This document shows, one piece after another, positions 467-48,542 of a stretch of 64,000 bases of DNA (the stretch's first letter is position 1; the number at the start of each line of letters is the position of its first letter). The notes under the pieces are model-generated. The model had not been told where the DNA came from and did not search any database. It worked only from the letters and a program-made list of their open reading frames with translations. A program made the translations under genes and the position numbers. The DNA lies in NCBI GenBank assembly GCA_048270185.1, contig JBLWTJ010000002.1:64001-128000 (forward strand), given 5' to 3'. Source of the DNA: Bacteriovoracaceae bacterium. Lineage in GTDB: Bacteria; Bdellovibrionota; Bacteriovoracia; Bacteriovoracales; Bacteriovoracaceae.

Positions 467-1375
467 TTAAAAGAAGCTTAAATATCTCTCTCTGATATAA
501 TTTCTTAACCACTGATGAGAAGAAGAGTTTTCGCGACTCTTATGCCAAACCATTTGATGCCTGAAGGGACTTACCTCAAATGGAACTTCAAAAGTCCTTA
601 GATCGTAGTACTTAGAGACTCTCTTACCAAAAGCTTCTGGAACAATAGTGAGAAGATCTCTATTTTCGATAAGCATTGGAATCGAATTAAGATATGAAGT
701 TCTCATGATTATTCTTCGACTCTCTCCAATACTTTGTAGGTAATTATCAATATCACTGCCAGGCTTCTCTGTTGGGGTATAAAGAACATGATCAGCTTTC
801 AAGTATTGCTTAAGTGTTATCTTCTTGCGGTATTGCTTACTGGCCTTATTGGCAAGAATACAAAAATTATGAATACCAAGTGTTTCAATGCTGAAGTTAC
901 TTATTTCATCGAGATTTCCGGCAAAGCTTAAGTCGATATCACCTCTTGTCATACGTTCTAAGAAGTCTTCTAAAACAATCCCCTTCATGGTGATGCTAAT
1001 ATTTGGAGCATCGTCCGTTAGAGAATTTAAAAGTTTCGGAACCCACATATAGGAATCAAATGCGGTACCAGAGACTTTAAAGTCCTTATTAGAGTTCGCA
1101 GCTGACCACCCACTTGACTCAAAAAGTCTACTCTCAAGATCACTTAAGTGGCCTTCCACAAATGAACCAAGCTCCATCGCCTTATCCGTTGGGATAAAAC
1201 TTCGGCCAGAGCGAATGAATAACTCATCATTAAGACTATCTCTTAAACGACTTAAAGCGTGGCTTACGGCCGGTTGAGAAAGGCCCAAATTAGTCGCAGT
1301 TTGACTTACATTTAAGGTATTAAATAAATCCTTAAAGATAACGAGTAGGTTTAAATCGAAATTCCTTATATTCAT
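467..1375 (-). CDS. LysR-family transcriptional regulator
   Basis: MNIRNFDLNLL..SQPAVSHALSRLR HTH; divergent from an oxidoreductase gene. Confidence 0.95.
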   Translation of the reverse strand: MNIRNFDLNLLVIFKDLFNTLNVSQTATNLGLSQPAVSHALSRLRDSLNDELFIRSGRSFIPTDKAMELGSFVEGHLSDLESRLFESSGWSAANSNKDFKVSGTAFDSYMWVPKLLNSLTDDAPNISITMKGIVLEDFLERMTRGDIDLSFAGNLDEISNFSIETLGIHNFCILANKASKQYRKKITLKQYLKADHVLYTPTEKPGSDIDNYLQSIGESRRIIMRTSYLNSIPMLIENRDLLTIVPEAFGKRVSKYYDLRTFEVPFEVSPFRHQMVWHKSRENSSSHQWLRNYIRERYLSFF

Positions 1376-42049: not shown

Positions 42050-43210
42050 TTATATTACTTTTTTATCTCCTGTAAAAAAGTCTTTCTTTAATCCTTTTTT
42101 AATATACTCAAGTCGCTCAATTTTTTTATTCAACGTTGAAATCAAGGAGTCAATTTCTCTAATTACTTTTACAACTTCATCTTGTTGTTTCAGAGACGGT
42201 AAAGGTACGGGAATCTTTGAAAAGTCCGCATAATAAAGCCTTAACCTGTCATTGGTTAAACCGTAAGAATATTGATGAAACAATCTAATAAATTTCTCAG
42301 TTTGAAAGAGGTAATTATAAAACTGTGTATTTATATTTTTATTTTTTGGCTCCAGAACCACATATGCTGGACTTACTAGGAAATCTTGATTAGCAATGCC
42401 TTGAACGCCTTGCCACATTCTCATCATGTTATAAGCAATCCAACCTTTTTTAACCCATAGATGGTCTTCTGCTTTTAAGTTTGTCTCAACTTTTTTCTCT
42501 TCTTCACTACGAGGAACAATTCCACGTCCTTTAGTTACAGAAGCAAGAGGTATTCCATCAACTCCCTTGAGTTTGGAATCCTTAAATATATCTCCCATTT
42601 TAACAACATCAAATGTACTACTATCTTTTAATACTTTCCCCTCTTCCAAACATAATTGATAAAGGTCATTCATAACTCCTTTTTTAAGAGCCTGAGTTTT
42701 AATAATCCGTTTTTTGAATGCTTTTAATGTTGACTCTATAGAGTCTAAGATTTCCACAATTCTAGCTTGTTCTTTATTTGAAGGGATTGCAATTGGTATC
42801 TTTAAGATTTCTGGTTCAGAAATTTCTTTTTGGCCTGTTCCGCCAATTAAATTATCTACTTTTTTATAAAAACCATACCACTGAAATAACAACTCAATAA
42901 ACTTATCATTCTCATTTTCCTTGCACTTAAAACTAGATATTGCATTCGATGCAATTAAGCCATCTAAACTTTTTGGTACAATTCCAATCCCACCGTTATG
43001 GAAGTTTTGCCGACCGATTAAAATCTCACCTTCGTTTCTGATATAATACGGTCTCCCCCTCTCTGTAGGAACAGGTCTTTTACCTGAGTTTTTTATACCT
43101 TTACCGTGAAGCTGTACTGTTAAAGCATAATAATTTTGTGGAGATTCAACCTTTTCCTTTTTTACAATCTCTAGAACATCTCCAATTTTACACTTCCTCC
43201 AACTATTCAT
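42050..43210 (-). CDS. hsdS: Type I R-M specificity subunit
   Basis: Two TRDs with IPSNKEQARIV and LPSLKQQDEVV conserved regions. Confidence 0.93.
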   Translation of the reverse strand: MNSWRKCKIGDVLEIVKKEKVESPQNYYALTVQLHGKGIKNSGKRPVPTERGRPYYIRNEGEILIGRQNFHNGGIGIVPKSLDGLIASNAISSFKCKENENDKFIELLFQWYGFYKKVDNLIGGTGQKEISEPEILKIPIAIPSNKEQARIVEILDSIESTLKAFKKRIIKTQALKKGVMNDLYQLCLEEGKVLKDSSTFDVVKMGDIFKDSKLKGVDGIPLASVTKGRGIVPRSEEEKKVETNLKAEDHLWVKKGWIAYNMMRMWQGVQGIANQDFLVSPAYVVLEPKNKNINTQFYNYLFQTEKFIRLFHQYSYGLTNDRLRLYYADFSKIPVPLPSLKQQDEVVKVIREIDSLISTLNKKIERLEYIKKGLKKDFFTGDKKVI

Positions 43211-44906
43211 AGCCCAACTCTTTTAAAAAACTATTCAGTTTCTTTTCAGTTTGACCTAGTTGTTCATTAACTTGATTTAATGAAAAAGTGTAATTATCCC
43301 AGATATTTGACAATAAATTAAAGAGTGCGACTCTTTCGTCGCCAATTACTTTTTTCAAATCCGATTTAAGTTTAAAGACAGGCTGAAAGCGAATTGAATC
43401 GCCCTTTATTTCAAATACTGATTCAACATCTAATCCTTCCATCAACTCAATAAAATATTCATCTTCAAGTTCATATTTAGGAATGCCTCCCTTTAGAATA
43501 TGTTCGACATCATAATTCGTTAAAGGAGGTGCCGTATCTATATATCTTCTGATGTTTAAGTTGTAGTCATTTTCACCTAGTTCTTTATGTGAAACGACGA
43601 TAGAGAACCTATTTTCTTCAGTGTAGTTTGAGTAAGTTTCAACAATCTTATCAATGTCTGAAGACCTCAACCTTCTTTGGATTTTCCTATCCTCATAAAG
43701 CAACTCTGCATTTATAAACAACAATTTCTTTTTTCTATTCTCATCTCTTTTCTTTTTAAAAATTAACAGTGCTGTTGGAATCCCTGTTCCATAAAACAAT
43801 CCCTCAGGTAATCCAATAACAGCATCCAGAATATCCTCATTTTCAAATAAAGCTGTTCTTATTTTTCCTTCAGCATTTCCCCTAAACAAAATACCATGTG
43901 GAACGATAACTCCTAGCCTTCCATTTGAATTGAGGCTTTTTATCATATGCTGAACGAATGCAAAGTCTGCATAACTCTTGGGCGGACAACCAAATAAGTC
44001 TCTTCCGTAAGGGTCACCACCTTTCCATATCTCTTGTCCCCAGTTTTTTAATGAAAATGGAGGATTTGCTATAACAAAATCAAAAGTTTTAATTTTCTTT
44101 GATGCTTCATCATCAAATAAGAGAGGTTTTTTTAAAGTATCACCATGAACGACACGAGCATCATCAATATCATGAAGGAAAAGGTTCATCTGAGAAATTG
44201 CCCATGTATTTATGTTTTTCTCTTGCCCAAAAAGTCTTAACGACTTGGGATTTTTTTTATTTCTCTCCATATAATGAAAAGCCTCAAGTAACATACCTGC
44301 TGAACCACATGTAGGGTCATAAACACTTGCTCCTTCACTAGGCTTTAACAACTCTACGATTAACTGGACTACTTCTTTGGGAGTATAGAATTCACCACCT
44401 TTTGAACCTGCATCGTCTGCAAACTTTGCAATTAAGTATTCATATGCATTTCCAAGCATGTCCGATGGGACATTCTTTTTCATTAGAGAGTATTTATCAA
44501 AATGCTGGATAAGCAATTCTAATGTAGAATCAGGAAACCTTCTCTTATTATTAAAATCTACATCCTGGAATACTCCATTTAACCTCTTGTTAGAATCTTC
44601 AATTGCTCTAAATGAGGAATTTAATGCTTCTCCAATATTTGTTGTCTTCTTTTTTACATCAGACCAAAAACAACCTTCAGGGATATGAAAGCGGTGCTCT
44701 TCAGGGTCCTTAGCAAGTTCTTCGTCTTCAAACTCCTTCAACCTTTCTTCGTACTCCTCTACCCATACATCTGAAAGACGCTTATAAAATAGAAGTCCAA
44801 AAATATAATGTTTATAGTCGGCCGCATCGATGGCACCTCTTAAAATATCGGCTGCTCCCCAGAGATGCGACTCAAGTTCTTGTTGTGTCAGTTTCTTATT
44901 TTCCAT
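43203..44906 (-). CDS. hsdM: Type I R-M N6-adenine methyltransferase
   Basis: LWGAADILRG, GEFYTP, YDPTCGSAGML, NPPF. Confidence 0.97.
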   Translation of the reverse strand: MENKKLTQQELESHLWGAADILRGAIDAADYKHYIFGLLFYKRLSDVWVEEYEERLKEFEDEELAKDPEEHRFHIPEGCFWSDVKKKTTNIGEALNSSFRAIEDSNKRLNGVFQDVDFNNKRRFPDSTLELLIQHFDKYSLMKKNVPSDMLGNAYEYLIAKFADDAGSKGGEFYTPKEVVQLIVELLKPSEGASVYDPTCGSAGMLLEAFHYMERNKKNPKSLRLFGQEKNINTWAISQMNLFLHDIDDARVVHGDTLKKPLLFDDEASKKIKTFDFVIANPPFSLKNWGQEIWKGGDPYGRDLFGCPPKSYADFAFVQHMIKSLNSNGRLGVIVPHGILFRGNAEGKIRTALFENEDILDAVIGLPEGLFYGTGIPTALLIFKKKRDENRKKKLLFINAELLYEDRKIQRRLRSSDIDKIVETYSNYTEENRFSIVVSHKELGENDYNLNIRRYIDTAPPLTNYDVEHILKGGIPKYELEDEYFIELMEGLDVESVFEIKGDSIRFQPVFKLKSDLKKVIGDERVALFNLLSNIWDNYTFSLNQVNEQLGQTEKKLNSFLKELGYE

Positions 44907-45258: not shown

Positions 45259-45312
45259 AGCATCAAGTCGTTGAGATTACTGAAGCCAAAACTCAACAAT
45301 TTCAACGCCTTG
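45259..45312 (-). terminator. Long hairpin directly downstream of tmRNA
   Basis: CAAG.CGTTGA...TCAACG.CTTG stem followed by a weak U-rich tail. Confidence 0.5.
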
Positions 45313-45314
45313 CA

Positions 45315-45682
45315 TGGTGGAGGTGGTGGGAATCGAACCCACGTCCGAAATGATTTCTTGATAGCGGCCTACGTGCGTAGTCTTCGGTTATCGTCAGAAG
45401 ACAAGACTGTCCGTGATACGTGACCTCGGCGAACCCCGGTGAGTGATTAACGAGCAGGCCCGGCGGGCTCGAAACCTAGTTAGCCAGCAGATTCAACTGG
45501 GTCGCTACATTCTGTTTCTTGGCAGTAGCGCCTCACAAGACTAATCCTAATTAATTAGGCAGCCATTGGCATTGCATAATCGTCTGCAATTAACGGTGGA
45601 CTCCTTTTTACCAGGACCGTGGAGACCAACCTGGACACGCCCGGATACCTGTCTACCATCCCGTCGAAACCAGGGCACCCCC
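45315..45682 (-). ncRNA. ssrA: tmRNA; tag peptide (A)ADDYAMPMAA
   Basis: 5' GGGGGTG..GGTTTCGAC and 3' GTGGGTTCGATTCCCACCACCTCCACCA form an acceptor stem with G3-U. Internal tag ORF ends in AA-stop. Extended -10 TGcTATACT at 45727-45735. Confidence 0.97.
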
Positions 45683-45787
45683 ATGAGATTTTGACACGGA
45701 TATTTGAACAAATATTCGTAAGCGGCAGTATAGCACAGCATTTCAAATGTGGAAAGAAATGGATTTTCGGTGATTTGATATAGTCTC

Positions 45788-45865
45788 AAAAAGAAGAACC
45801 CCGTAAAACGGGGTGCTTCTTTGGCAAGTCATAGAATTGTGATCTCGAAGGGCACAACCTATTTA
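45788..45865 (-). ncRNA. Putative antitoxin sRNA 1
   Basis: TGgTAAAAT extended -10 (45872-45880); ACCCCGT/ACGGGGT terminator with U-tract; 18+17 nt complementary to peptide-1 mRNA. Confidence 0.75.
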
Positions 45866-45939
45866 CAAAGAATTTTACCATACTTTGCCGATTTCCTCCA
45901 TTCTTCCTCAATGAGGAGGACTCTTTTTTGGAGATGTTC

Positions 45940-46014
45940 ATGGAAGGACTTTGGCAAGTCATAGAAATCATAGTGCTTATTATTCAGTTAATTCTGGTTC
46001 TAAGAAAGTTGTGA
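45940..46014 (+). CDS. Putative type I toxin peptide 1, MEGLWQVIEIIVLIIQLILVLRKL
   Basis: GGAG SD, single TM helix with basic tail, own terminator, paralog 253 bp downstream. Confidence 0.8.
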   Translation: MEGLWQVIEIIVLIIQLILVLRKL

Positions 46015-46020
46015 TTTCGG

Positions 46021-46047
46021 AGGGCGTAGTGAAAGCTGCGCCCTTTT
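46021..46047 (+). terminator. Intrinsic terminator of peptide-1 mRNA
   Basis: AGGGCGTAG-tgaaag-CTGCGCCCT-TTT. Confidence 0.8.
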
Positions 46048-46049
46048 AT

Positions 46050-46120
46050 AAACAACAAAACCCCGTAAGAACGGGGTTAAGTTTTTGGTTACTACTAGAA
46101 ATCCTCGGAGGGCACTAGAT
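46050..46120 (-). ncRNA. Putative antitoxin sRNA 2
   Basis: TGcTATAAT extended -10 (46127-46135); AACCCCGT/ACGGGGTT terminator; 19+10 nt complementary to peptide-2 mRNA. Confidence 0.75.
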
Positions 46121-46192
46121 TAATCAATTATAGCATAATTCTAACCATAGCTCCACTTTCTCCGCCCAATGAAGGGAGTCTAGGAGAAAGTC

Positions 46193-46267
46193 ATGGATGA
46201 CTATTGGTTACTACTAGAAATCATGACCTATGTAGTTCAAATTATTTTGATCTTACGGAAGTTGTGA
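46193..46267 (+). CDS. Putative type I toxin peptide 2, MDDYWLLLEIMTYVVQIILILRKL
   Basis: AGGAG SD, same length as peptide 1 with conserved W5, EI, Q16 and LRKL. Confidence 0.8.
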   Translation: MDDYWLLLEIMTYVVQIILILRKL

Positions 46268-46273
46268 TTTCGG

Positions 46274-46302
46274 GGGGCGCAGTGAAAGCTGCGCCCCTTT
46301 TT
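46274..46302 (+). terminator. Intrinsic terminator of peptide-2 mRNA
   Basis: GGGGCGCAG-tgaaag-CTGCGCCCC-TTTTT. Confidence 0.85.
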
Positions 46303-46304
46303 CC

Positions 46305-46787
46305 CTACTCCCCACTCCTAGCACGAGCAATATCGTAGAATCCCTCATAGATCAGGTAAATAGGAATCATAACGATCAGCTGAACGGCCACGACTTTCAC
46401 CAAGAATAAAGCCGAGTAAACACTACTTGGAAAGAAGTACAAGAGCGTTGCGATTTGAAAGGTTCCAGCCCCAAAGACGCTGGCATTCTTAAAAGATCGA
46501 GAAATGAAGTCATAAGGAGAACGGATATCTTTAAGCGTAATCTTTGCTTTCATATCCTCACCCTTTGCAAGCTTTTTAAAATTTGCAAATCCTCCTAGGA
46601 TTGCAACGAGGAGGAAGTGCGCCAGAGTTAGCCCTATAATAACTGATAAAATCACAAGATAGAGGTCAAGTGAGCTCTCAATACTTGAGCCTCTTCTCTC
46701 ATAACCACAAACTCCTCCAAGCACAAGACCTGAAAGGTAGATCATCACAATTGAATAATTTAATTTAAACTTACTCATCACTATCAT
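46305..46787 (-). CDS. 4-TM hypothetical membrane protein
   Basis: Four hydrophobic segments; coupled to the upstream gene. Confidence 0.7.
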   Translation of the reverse strand: MIVMSKFKLNYSIVMIYLSGLVLGGVCGYERRGSSIESSLDLYLVILSVIIGLTLAHFLLVAILGGFANFKKLAKGEDMKAKITLKDIRSPYDFISRSFKNASVFGAGTFQIATLLYFFPSSVYSALFLVKVVAVQLIVMIPIYLIYEGFYDIARARSGE

Positions 46788-47189: not shown

Positions 47190-48542
47190 CTACATTCCAA
47201 ACTGCGGTCTACCGTAGTTAATCTGTAATTCTTTAAGATTTATATTTAGATCTCTATTTAAGTTTACATTATCATCGATAACATCAATATCATTTTTTAC
47301 TCTGCCTAAAAGATCGATCATTCTACCATCCGAACAGTCCTTCTTCCCCTTGCACTCACCCTCATCTTCAGGTTTCTTTGGGTTTGTAGGTTTATCGTCA
47401 CCTTTCGGGGTATCGTCGCCTTTCGGCGTATCATCACCTTTTGGCGTATCGTCGCCCTTCGGCGTATCGTCACCTTTTGGTTGATCTCCGCCACCAGTTC
47501 TTGGATTATCTACTTTAGGAGTATCTGGCTTTTCTGGTTTATCTTCAGGAATATCTGGAGCACCACCTGTTCTCGGATTATCAACCTTAGGTGTATCAGA
47601 TTTAGGCTTGTCTTGTTTTTGATTCTTTCCTTTATAATATTCTTTAAGTTCTGAATTACAGTTCATCATGCATACGCCACCGGCAATTAGAGCTGCTCCT
47701 ACGCCAACATATGGACCTAGCTTACTTCCAGCTAGCCCGCCCATAAGCGTCGTTATTCCACAATTAACTAAACAAGTTTTAACATCTCCACTGCTCGTCG
47801 AGCTAGTTGAGTACAAAAGACTATTCTTATCCCTCTCAAGTTTATTACCTAAAAGAGGACTAATCATTTCATCACCATCATTAAAGCTTGGATCACCACC
47901 CATTCTTGGACCAAGGCCAAAGTCTTGCTTACCTCTTGATGGCATTTGATCGCCACCTAAGTCTCCACCAAATTGACCATCTTCATGGCCCATTCTCGGT
48001 CCACCAAAGTCAGGTTTATTTGAGCGAGAAAGAGGTGGATCAAAAGAAGGTCTTGAAGGATCAACAGTGCGGTCGATTTCGATGCCGAAAGTTTTTTCAA
48101 CTTCATCACCAATTGCAGGGTTTAGTTTATTGATGATACTTGCAACTTGAGAAACCTTATCCATCTTTCCCATCGATGCGAACATATCCATCGTCACAAC
48201 AGATGGAAAAAGAAGACCGTCGTGAAGTCCCTTACTTTTGATATTATCTTTTATCCCTTTCATCATCATAAGCTTATCAACCATTCCAAGAGAACCATCG
48301 ACATCTGAAATTTGAACTAAGCGACTGACAAGTCGATCAAGAGTTGCACTTGGAAATTTTTTAGAAAGCTCATTAGTAAAGTCGACTTCAGCCTTTAAAA
48401 ATATTTTAAAGTTTTGTGCTCTCTCTTTAAGACACTCAACATCTCCAGCACAAGCATCTAGAGATTGTGCCACTACATTAAAAGACGATAGCAAGACGAT
48501 CATCATAAGCATTGAAAATTTGTGTAAGTAAATCACTCTCAT
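47190..48542 (-). CDS. Secreted repeat-containing protein with a Cys-flanked glycine-zipper segment
   Basis: Signal peptide; CLVNC..GGLAGSKLGPYVGVGAALIAGGVCMMNC; PKGDDT repeats. Confidence 0.8.
   Translation of the reverse strand: MRVIYLHKFSMLMMIVLLSSFNVVAQSLDACAGDVECLKERAQNFKIFLKAEVDFTNELSKKFPSATLDRLVSRLVQISDVDGSLGMVDKLMMMKGIKDNIKSKGLHDGLLFPSVVTMDMFASMGKMDKVSQVASIINKLNPAIGDEVEKTFGIEIDRTVDPSRPSFDPPLSRSNKPDFGGPRMGHEDGQFGGDLGGDQMPSRGKQDFGLGPRMGGDPSFNDGDEMISPLLGNKLERDKNSLLYSTSSTSSGDVKTCLVNCGITTLMGGLAGSKLGPYVGVGAALIAGGVCMMNCNSELKEYYKGKNQKQDKPKSDTPKVDNPRTGGAPDIPEDKPEKPDTPKVDNPRTGGGDQPKGDDTPKGDDTPKGDDTPKGDDTPKGDDKPTNPKKPEDEGECKGKKDCSDGRMIDLLGRVKNDIDVIDDNVNLNRDLNINLKELQINYGRPQFGM
47395..47482. repeat. 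Coding 18-bp tandem repeat (PKGDDT, about 5 copies)
   Basis: Degenerate third positions with conserved amino acids. Confidence 0.9.

Follow-up and report, generated by a model that had tools for sequence, protein, structure and literature searches.

Two tandem units of a peptide gene and a predicted sRNA gene

Positions 45788-46302 of a 64-kb stretch of Bacteriovoracaceae DNA (assembly GCA_048270185.1, contig JBLWTJ010000002.1, forward-strand positions 64,001 to 128,000; hereafter the window, from whose first letter all coordinates are counted) hold two tandem copies of a small genetic unit. They are flanked on one side by the transfer-messenger RNA (tmRNA) gene and on the other by three adjacent minus-strand genes that encode membrane or secreted proteins. 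In each unit, a plus-strand gene for a hydrophobic peptide of 24 amino acids (aa) stands back to back with a predicted minus-strand small RNA (sRNA) gene, whose product would be complementary to both ends of the peptide coding sequence (CDS). We describe these units here as candidate type I toxin-antitoxin-like modules.

Self-comparison of the window gives a spacing of 253 nucleotides (nt) between the units. On the plus strand, each unit carries a Shine-Dalgarno (SD) sequence, a 24-codon open reading frame (ORF), and a strong terminator hairpin; on the minus strand, each carries an extended -10 promoter element and then a terminator-like hairpin with a U run. Terminator-like sites number 5 in this region, with 0.9 expected. 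The predicted sRNA ends before the mRNA begins; the genes are divergent and non-overlapping, with two separate terminators per unit.

45788-46047: unit 1, peptide gene (plus) with divergent sRNA gene (minus)
45788-45865, minus: predicted sRNA-1 gene, ~78 nt, 5' end placed from the -10 motif
45798-45814, minus: sRNA-1 terminator stem, U run from 45797 down
45819-45836, minus: site-1 copy in the sRNA-1 gene, plus-strand identical to 45949-45966
45837-45858, minus: site-2 copy in the sRNA-1 gene; against 46009-46030, G-U-compatible differences only
45872-45880, minus: sRNA-1 extended -10, TGGTAAAAT, complement of these positions, read from the sequence
45879-45884, plus: candidate -10 of mRNA 1 (CATACT), uncertain; conserved CCATA at the 5' end of the leader alignment
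45891-46047, plus: predicted peptide mRNA 1, ~157 nt, from folds, consensus fold and leader-helix covariation
45902-45920, plus: mRNA 1 leader hairpin, CAAUGA loop at 45911-45916
45930-45933, plus: mRNA 1 SD, GGAG
45940-46014, plus: peptide ORF 1, 24 aa, MEGLWQVIEIIVLIIQLILVLRKL and stop
45949-45966, plus: target site 1 in mRNA 1, CDS nt +10 to +27, codons 4-9
45964-46018, plus: mRNA 1 CDS hairpin, from the fold
46009-46030, plus: target site 2 in mRNA 1, last codon, stop codon and terminator 5' arm
46019-46046, plus: mRNA 1 terminator
46050-46300: unit 2, peptide gene (plus) with divergent sRNA gene (minus)
46050-46122, minus: predicted sRNA-2 gene, ~70 nt, from repeats, terminator scan and fold
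46059-46078, minus: sRNA-2 terminator stem
46085-46103, minus: site-1 copy in the sRNA-2 gene
46103-46115, minus: site-2 copy in the sRNA-2 gene
46127-46135, minus: sRNA-2 extended -10, TGCTATAAT, complement of these positions, read from the sequence
46134-46139, plus: candidate -10 of mRNA 2 (CATAAT), uncertain
46146-46300, plus: predicted peptide mRNA 2, from folds and leader covariation
46156-46163, plus: mRNA 2 anti-SD, CTTTCTCC
~46165-46176, plus: mRNA 2 leader hairpin, loop at 46167-46172
46182-46186, plus: mRNA 2 SD, AGGAG
46193-46267, plus: peptide ORF 2, 24 aa, MDDYWLLLEIMTYVVQIILILRKL and stop
46204-46222, plus: target site 1 in mRNA 2, CDS nt +12 to +30
46217-46271, plus: mRNA 2 CDS hairpin
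46268-46280, plus: target site 2 in mRNA 2, just past the stop codon, terminator 5' arm
46272-46299, plus: mRNA 2 terminator

Much of this layout had been put forward in a first-pass annotation of the window. Repeat comparison bears out its 253-nt unit occurring twice, and the two 24-aa ORFs (45940-46014 and 46193-46267), each with an SD and a terminator, are found in the sequence and in the folds. The minus-strand extended -10 and terminator that it assigned to each unit are present as motifs and as hairpins at 45814..45798 and 46078..46059. Sequestration of the SD within the 5' untranslated region (UTR), also claimed, is predicted in the minimum free energy (MFE) fold of both mRNAs.

The peptides are under purifying selection and the ORF is coding: the ratio of nonsynonymous to synonymous changes (pN/pS) is 0.07-0.43 in 15 of 15 within-class pairs, and 0.20-0.43 for ORF 1 against its relatives. 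The ATG of ORF 1 at 45940 lies inside a listed TTG-started ORF (45928-46014). Peptide 1 has a grand average of hydropathy (GRAVY) of 1.69, within a range of 1.0-2.0 for the peptides as a whole; their core is hydrophobic, their N-terminus acidic, and their C-terminus mostly basic or aromatic. In the units examined that have the two-part layout described below, peptide length is 24-25 aa with one exception of 28 aa (G126; G, C and L handles denote genomes, contigs and loci); at 24-28 aa, the peptides fall among the small hydrophobic peptides (below ~60 aa, with a predicted membrane helix) expected of type I toxins. Five of the peptides, looked up as exact sequences, are absent from a collection of 15 billion proteins, and the family defined by the leader is invisible to gene callers.

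We found that the SD pairs with an anti-SD tract in all six MFE folds of the mRNAs, both window mRNAs included. Across 26 leaders, pairing reaches 89% in the anti-SD:SD helix and 95% in the leader hairpin, and 91.6% of cells are paired compared to 38-59% with slid partners, in an alignment that was fitted to the model and so favors structure. Ten of the 13 pairs in these leader helices change on both sides. Compensatory changes also occur in the base pairs of the CDS hairpin in the consensus fold of six homologous mRNAs, and at the foot of the hairpin the end of site 1 meets the start of site 2. The leader hairpin has a CAAUGA loop in 23 of 26 leaders, the remaining three differing at one position, on a stem that co-varies. 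Such conservation of the loop suggests that a protein or another RNA contacts it; the window's predicted sRNAs contain no complement to it. A conserved upstream ORF beginning at the AUG of the loop was considered and dropped, as its length and frame vary between units.

On the opposite strand, the motif TGnTAnnnT stands at the expected place in 16 of 17 units, with a terminator hairpin in each. A two-hexamer promoter scan did not list the extended -10 elements of sRNA-1 and sRNA-2 because they have no -35. Four RNA runs, found by a query that included the tmRNA gene (shares 0.13-0.19), hold only relatives' tmRNA-like contigs that cover 45300-45706 and leave zero coverage over 45707-46400; the presence of the organism in these runs is not shown, and they are uninformative on expression of the units.

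Two-site complementarity and its wobble bias

Read along the plus strand, each predicted sRNA gene consists of a terminator, a copy of site 1 (codons 4-9) and, directly after it, a copy of site 2 (the final codon with the stop, plus the mRNA terminator's 5' arm). The 42-46 nt that separate the two sites in the peptide gene are missing from the sRNA gene, which is in effect, by this alignment, the peptide gene minus its middle, i.e., the hairpin interior. In the fold of sRNA-1, the 5' to 3' order is a small hairpin with the site-2 complement, a single-stranded site-1 complement, and the terminator.

The site-1 copies are exact, as the first-pass annotation had stated: 45819-45836 equals 45949-45966 (18 nt), and 46085-46103 equals 46204-46222 (19 nt). 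Each repeat occurs twice in the window, with 0.00 expected from 100 shuffles. Its claim that the site-2 differences leave G-U pairs, two in each unit, was also correct. In unit 1, 45837-45853 differs from 46009-46025 at two positions (C/T and A/G), both G-U in the duplex, and with wobbles allowed the match becomes a run of 22-24 nt (45835-45858 versus 46007-46030, 7 wobbles). In unit 2, 46104-46113 and 46269-46278 have two G-U positions, within a wobble-tolerant run of 13 nt (46103-46115 versus 46268-46280, 4 wobbles).

We estimated pairing from windowed energies, cofolding, and ungapped alignments, which replaced a whole-RNA duplex folding that over-extended with long loops. Summed site energies lie 5.2-7.7 standard deviations below those of shuffled sRNAs. 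Cofolding of the two RNAs predicts that both sites are used and that a three-way junction forms in 5 of 6 units, with a gain of -8 to -22 kcal/mol over the separate folds. Site-1 duplexes between cognate partners have energies of -21 to -29 kcal/mol, and those between non-cognate partners mostly -9 to -17.5 kcal/mol; the L083 sRNA reaches -21 kcal/mol on the G012 mRNA and -24 kcal/mol on the G007 mRNA at non-cognate site 1.

To follow the design in relatives, we took the 110 nt preceding each leader, compared them with the early CDS and the stop region in alignments without gaps and blind to mismatch type, and passed units with a site-1 score of at least 10, a site-2 score of at least 8, and -3 to 12 nt between the copies. 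Fourteen of 27 units passed, as did 1 of 25 further units, giving 15; three more (window unit 2, L103_1501, and L124) show the layout by eye and miss a cut-off, for a total of 18. They come from one genus (G000, G002, G004, G007, G009, and G012), from four others (G034, G257, G113, and G126), and from a metagenome contig (L083). The five genera all belong to one family of the Bdellovibrionota. The order is sRNA terminator, site-1 copy, a gap of 0-8 nt, site-2 copy, and opposing extended -10. Site 1 always starts at CDS +9 to +13 and site 2 at -7 to +3 relative to the stop. The site-1 sequence is different in every lineage yet tracks its own mRNA, and the passing units encode several peptide classes (M[ED][GD]LW..., MEDFLLLLELVICLLNLLIILSKF, MEDILLSIELTIIILKLLLLVLRR, MEEILLNFLKALILLMSFLICKPCF, and others).

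Several searches delimit this group. BLASTN with the pair gave no further copy in its own genome and, in 61 relatives, only G002 of the same genus, where unit 1 again stands beside the tmRNA gene. Peptide profile searches of 237 genomes returned mostly noise; only G002, G007, and G012 were real, the last two newly added, and the other inspected matches were rejected, having no ORF, terminator, or repeats. A strict DNA pattern found only the G007 record in a collection of genome contigs that apparently lacks G002 and G012, hence no evidence of absence; none of 17 pattern matches in this collection was confirmed as a related locus. With a relaxed pattern, metagenome contigs yielded 21 loci, of which 2 were real (L083, and L099, identical to G012) and 19 unrelated. 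A covariance model of the leader and early CDS (R1) matched 6 of 6 sampled genomes of the genus as well as G034, G109, G257, G113, and others; outside the family, 127 genomes from 24 other families of the phylum gave no match at E <= 0.01. A second model (R2), built from 26 leaders, had matches in 41 of the family's 151 genomes, spread patchily over 16 of 69 genera, with at most 9 matches per genome.

A larger second leader class emerged from these searches. It shares the CAAUGA-loop hairpin and a sequestered SD and has no two-part copy (L107-L109, L125-L130, and L140-L159, from G005, G006, G109, G139, G033, G251, and others). Its peptides read ME[ED]xxRV... (23-27 aa) or MDEFMRFLK... (27 aa). 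Many of these loci end in a conserved 3' region of TTTAGG, hairpin, and CCACCT, and the only copy in some is a site-1-like one of 10-13 nt at the very start of the leader.

Mismatches within the blind alignments of the 15 passing units are strongly directional.

sRNA gene A, mRNA G: 20
sRNA gene G, mRNA A: 0
sRNA gene C, mRNA T: 11
sRNA gene T, mRNA C: 2
Transversions: 12

The A/G and C/T differences leave a G-U pair if the mRNA is bound by an RNA complementary to the upstream copy, and the mirror changes leave C-A or A-C. Transitions compatible with G-U pairing thus outnumber incompatible ones by 31 to 2, a bias whose direction only pairing of a minus-strand RNA with the mRNA predicts. With one unit per near-identical lineage (12 units), the counts are 22 versus 2 (binomial p = 3.6e-5). 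AT-biased decay of a dead copy could not produce the C/T class, in which the upstream copy is the GC-richer one (11 cases). The wobble bias is the strongest evidence that the predicted minus-strand RNA exists and binds the mRNA and, as far as comparison of sequences can tell, the pairing is under selection across relatives.

A proposed antitoxin mechanism and its alternatives

We propose that each unit is a type I toxin-antitoxin-like module, a reading to which we give a probability of roughly 75% and from which we infer its transcripts, repression, and toxicity. The plus strand would yield a highly structured mRNA of ~155 nt for the 24-aa hydrophobic peptide. Its leader anti-SD tract would pair with the SD, its CDS hairpin would join codons 8-11 to the last codons, and a strong terminator would follow directly. 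An extended -10 promoter on the minus strand, facing away from the mRNA promoter beside it, would produce an sRNA of ~70-80 nt with no overlap with the mRNA. This sRNA is predicted to pair with both flanks of the CDS hairpin, forming a three-way junction of ~30-40 paired bases. Site 1 (codons 4-9), predicted to be single-stranded in both RNAs, is the likely seed and cognate-specificity determinant, and site 2 would cover the stop codon and the terminator base. Because the duplex would start 9-12 nt after the start codon, inside the footprint of an initiating ribosome, we suggest that it blocks initiation; a duplex of this length probably also makes the mRNA a target of double-strand-specific cleavage. 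In excess, the peptide may act as a membrane-active toxin.

The first-pass annotation had likewise proposed an sRNA clamped onto the early CDS and the stop codon/terminator base, and the layout in 15 units together with the 31 versus 2 bias supports such pairing. The length of its looped-out segment, 42-46 nt, is confirmed; rather than a passive loop, the segment is a conserved CDS hairpin, with a three-way junction predicted. It had set the comparison of cognate with non-cognate pairing as a check and the lack of co-variation among homologs as grounds for refutation: the site-1 energies mostly separate the two kinds of pairing, and site 1 of the relatives tracks their own mRNA. Its cognate co-variation therefore stands for site 1 and fails for site 2, which cross-reacts between the window units.

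Several observations weigh against our reading. First, the sRNA-1 duplex with site 2 of mRNA 2 (-37.5 kcal/mol) is stronger than that with its own mRNA (-33.0 kcal/mol); site 2 is common within a subtype, and only site 1 is cognate-specific in the window units. Second, site 2 is buried in the mRNA fold, shared between the CDS hairpin (3' arm) and the terminator (5' arm), and the predicted G007 dimer uses site 1 only (1 of 6). Third, the promoter scan lists no mRNA promoter, which is only tentatively placed. Fourth, the 12 transversions lie within the aligned sites, some at over-extended ends, and, since units share ancestry, the p value of the wobble bias overstates independence and is a guide only. 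Fifth, site 1 could stay identical through gene conversion between the neighboring direct repeats, with no selection on pairing at all, but this would not yield the wobble bias. Finally, most members of the wider leader family (10 of 27 plus 24 of 25 units), and most of the copies from beyond the window's genus, have no upstream two-part copy; hence, the clamp is not the sole way of handling leader-family mRNAs.

A more elaborate role for the clamp is conceivable, and we regard it as doubtful. The sRNA would cover codons 4-9 and at the same time remove a 3' decoy, forcing the anti-SD onto the SD. Site 2 is a purine-rich, SD-like tract and a possible decoy partner of the leader anti-SD (4 pairs). 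In the consensus fold (alignment A5, columns 40-43 with 184-187), leader CUCC pairs with a GGAG that lies within site 2 just past the stop codon, in place of the anti-SD:SD helix; there are only four such pairs, with little variation. The unit would then work as a three-way-junction switch that senses the coding region at its two ends. The strictly G-U-only way in which the antitoxin gene diverges from the toxin gene may itself have been selected, to weaken the sRNA's own hairpin and to lower the DNA homology that deletes the module, as in two relics described next.

Copies of the unit come and go between genomes. Tandem pairs occur in the window and in G034 (C86). Three of 31 model matches examined are decayed copies: L105 (G011:C1:1701217) has a TTA to TAA nonsense change at codon 10, L126 (G006:C21:124031) a start codon changed from ATG to ATA, and L131 (G005:C32:22254) a one-base deletion causing a frameshift. 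In two independent fused relics, in G002 (L016 4376-4500) and G007:C127 (L075 ~745-870, minus strand), the sRNA terminator and site 1 are fused directly to what remains of the CDS and to its terminator; the two promoters are missing, as are the site-2 copy, leader, and start codon. The relics look as if they arose by recombination between the site-1 repeats, their expected product, which would remove both promoters at once. Tandem, patchy, decayed, and deleted copies fit addictive or selfish modules and are not proof of them.

The unit might instead encode a small membrane protein with an ordinary role, for example as a modulator of a transporter or sensor, tuned by antisense RNA and not a toxin at all; we judge this unlikely, a little more so than the decoy switch. 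Purifying selection on the peptides is what any useful small protein would show, and unit 1 stays beside ssrA in two species. Such a role sits poorly with a copy number of 0-9 per genome, patchy over 69 genera, and with tandem duplications, decayed copies, and clean relics of two-gene deletions. An antisense RNA that is private to each copy and co-varies with it also fits selfish toxin-antitoxin modules better.

Far less probable is that there is no functional sRNA and that the upstream copies are dead remnants of a peptide gene that was duplicated and then lost its interior, alike through shared ancestry or gene conversion. The upstream segment does resemble a peptide gene with its middle deleted, recombination between the repeats does occur, and no transcript is seen, the RNA runs being uninformative over the units. 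Dead fragments should, however, show both directions of transition, against the observed 31 versus 2 with 11 GC-richer upstream bases; they should not lie between a terminator and an opposing extended -10, as the copies do in 16 of 17 units, nor keep their layout over five genera despite sequence turnover. A small non-autonomous mobile or repeat element, whose hairpins are terminal structures rather than terminators, would account for multi-copy units of ~255 nt, sometimes tandem, with a hairpin at each end, but we give it almost no credence. Neither end hairpin is an inverted version of the other, a further unit is absent from the same genome, and target-site duplications did not turn up (without a systematic search). 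An ORF under purifying selection and a covarying SD-sequestering helix are features of a gene.

Returning to the toxin-antitoxin reading, the surroundings of the units bear on the sRNA-1 terminator. We list the tmRNA gene as context only.

45315-45682, minus: tmRNA gene (ssrA), from Rfam
45755-45727, minus: ssrA promoter-like site, TTTCCA, 17 nt, TATACT with TG, ~35 nt past the sRNA-1 terminator

The -10 of the tmRNA gene is likewise TG-extended in the promoter scan. Given the ~35 nt between them, the sRNA-1 terminator may also shield ssrA against read-through. Beyond the tmRNA gene 3' end sits a 567-aa ORF (43203-44906, minus) with the look of a type I restriction-modification methylase subunit, judged by N6-methylase-like motifs in the translation alone. 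G002 carries different genes there, and the ssrA 3' side may therefore be an island inserted at ssrA. On the other flank, a 450-aa protein (47190-48542, minus) has a signal-like N-terminus, a run of PKGDDT repeats, and no Pfam match; its G002 homolog (L016 2791-4290, 499 aa) has KPKKDED repeats instead. The gene block with this protein comes after both units in the window and lies between unit 1 and the unit-2 relic in G002.

Relation to described type I systems

Rfam, searched at E up to 10, returned nothing but tmRNA above threshold for the region and no known antitoxin sRNA family; Pfam and NCBIfam returned 0 families for 5 peptides, save one chance-level match. The first-pass annotation's view that no described family matches thus agrees with all three databases. 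One account places type I toxin-antitoxin systems so far only in Proteobacteria, Firmicutes, and Tenericutes (PMC12390103). Full-text literature searches on Bdellovibrio and on Halobacteriovorax, judged by titles and abstracts, turned up no paper on a type I system in these predators. The parts consulted of the T1TAdb paper (PMC8594479) and of Fozo et al. 2010 (PMC2887945) make no mention of these bacteria; their supplementary tables, with thousands of candidate ORFs, could hold related entries. The leader, present in 41 of 151 genomes of one bacterial family, has gone unseen by gene callers.

The units may also be useful beyond their own family. Natural cognate and non-cognate pairs with wobble-only substitutions offer a series for the study of antisense specificity, three-way junctions, and orthogonal RNA regulators. 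They suggest, in addition, a route by which an antitoxin could originate, namely from a copy of its own toxin gene that lost its middle by internal deletion.

We compared the units with known systems as the cited papers describe them. The closest parallel in principle is par (Fst, RNA I/RNA II of Enterococcus faecalis pAD1), in which direct DNA repeats read in opposite directions create the complementarity, the terminator region is a further contact among several separate interaction sites, and the SD is sequestered by an intramolecular stem-loop (PMC7472228, PMC4147584). The par genes are convergent and share one bidirectional terminator, whereas here they are divergent and non-overlapping with their own terminators. 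The par repeats cover the initiation codon and SD (PMC7472228), whereas here complementarity starts 9-12 nt past the start codon, with site 2 at the stop. Fst and Ldr peptides carry a PXXXG motif (PMC7472228), whereas the peptides here lack it, and the hydrophobic core of the window peptides has neither proline nor glycine.

In gene arrangement, the units resemble tisB/istR-1, shoB/ohsC, zor/orz, as well as dinQ/agrB of Escherichia coli, where a divergent, non-overlapping antitoxin gene lies 5' of a gene for a small hydrophobic peptide and zor/orz also forms a tandem pair (PMC4147584, PMC8594479, PMC2887945). In that group, the sRNA pairs within a long 5' UTR, clear of initiation site and CDS (PMC4147584, PMC8594479), whereas here there are two targets, CDS +9 to +30 and the stop codon/terminator. 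The E. coli ibs/sib system shares two mRNA recognition domains, one of them inside the CDS, and a repeated locus with cognate discrimination between copies (PMC4147584). Sib is encoded exactly opposite ibs and is fully complementary to it, unlike the sRNAs here, which are encoded elsewhere and skip 42-46 nt of CDS. RalA of E. coli is a trans-encoded sRNA with complementarity inside the toxin CDS (PMC4041452, PMC4147584), but RalR is a DNase, the site is single and 16 nt long, and the genetic layout is another. In hok/sok, ldr/rdl, ibs/sib, and aapA/isoA, the antisense RNA overlaps the mRNA (PMC8594479), and here there is no overlap.

The units lack a defining feature of each group compared, so we do not place them in any described family; what they encode looks like a new type I variant. 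Known antitoxins act by cis overlap or by targeting the 5' UTR, and the geometry proposed here would be a third, in which a trans-encoded divergent antitoxin holds the coding region at its two ends, on either side of a conserved hairpin.

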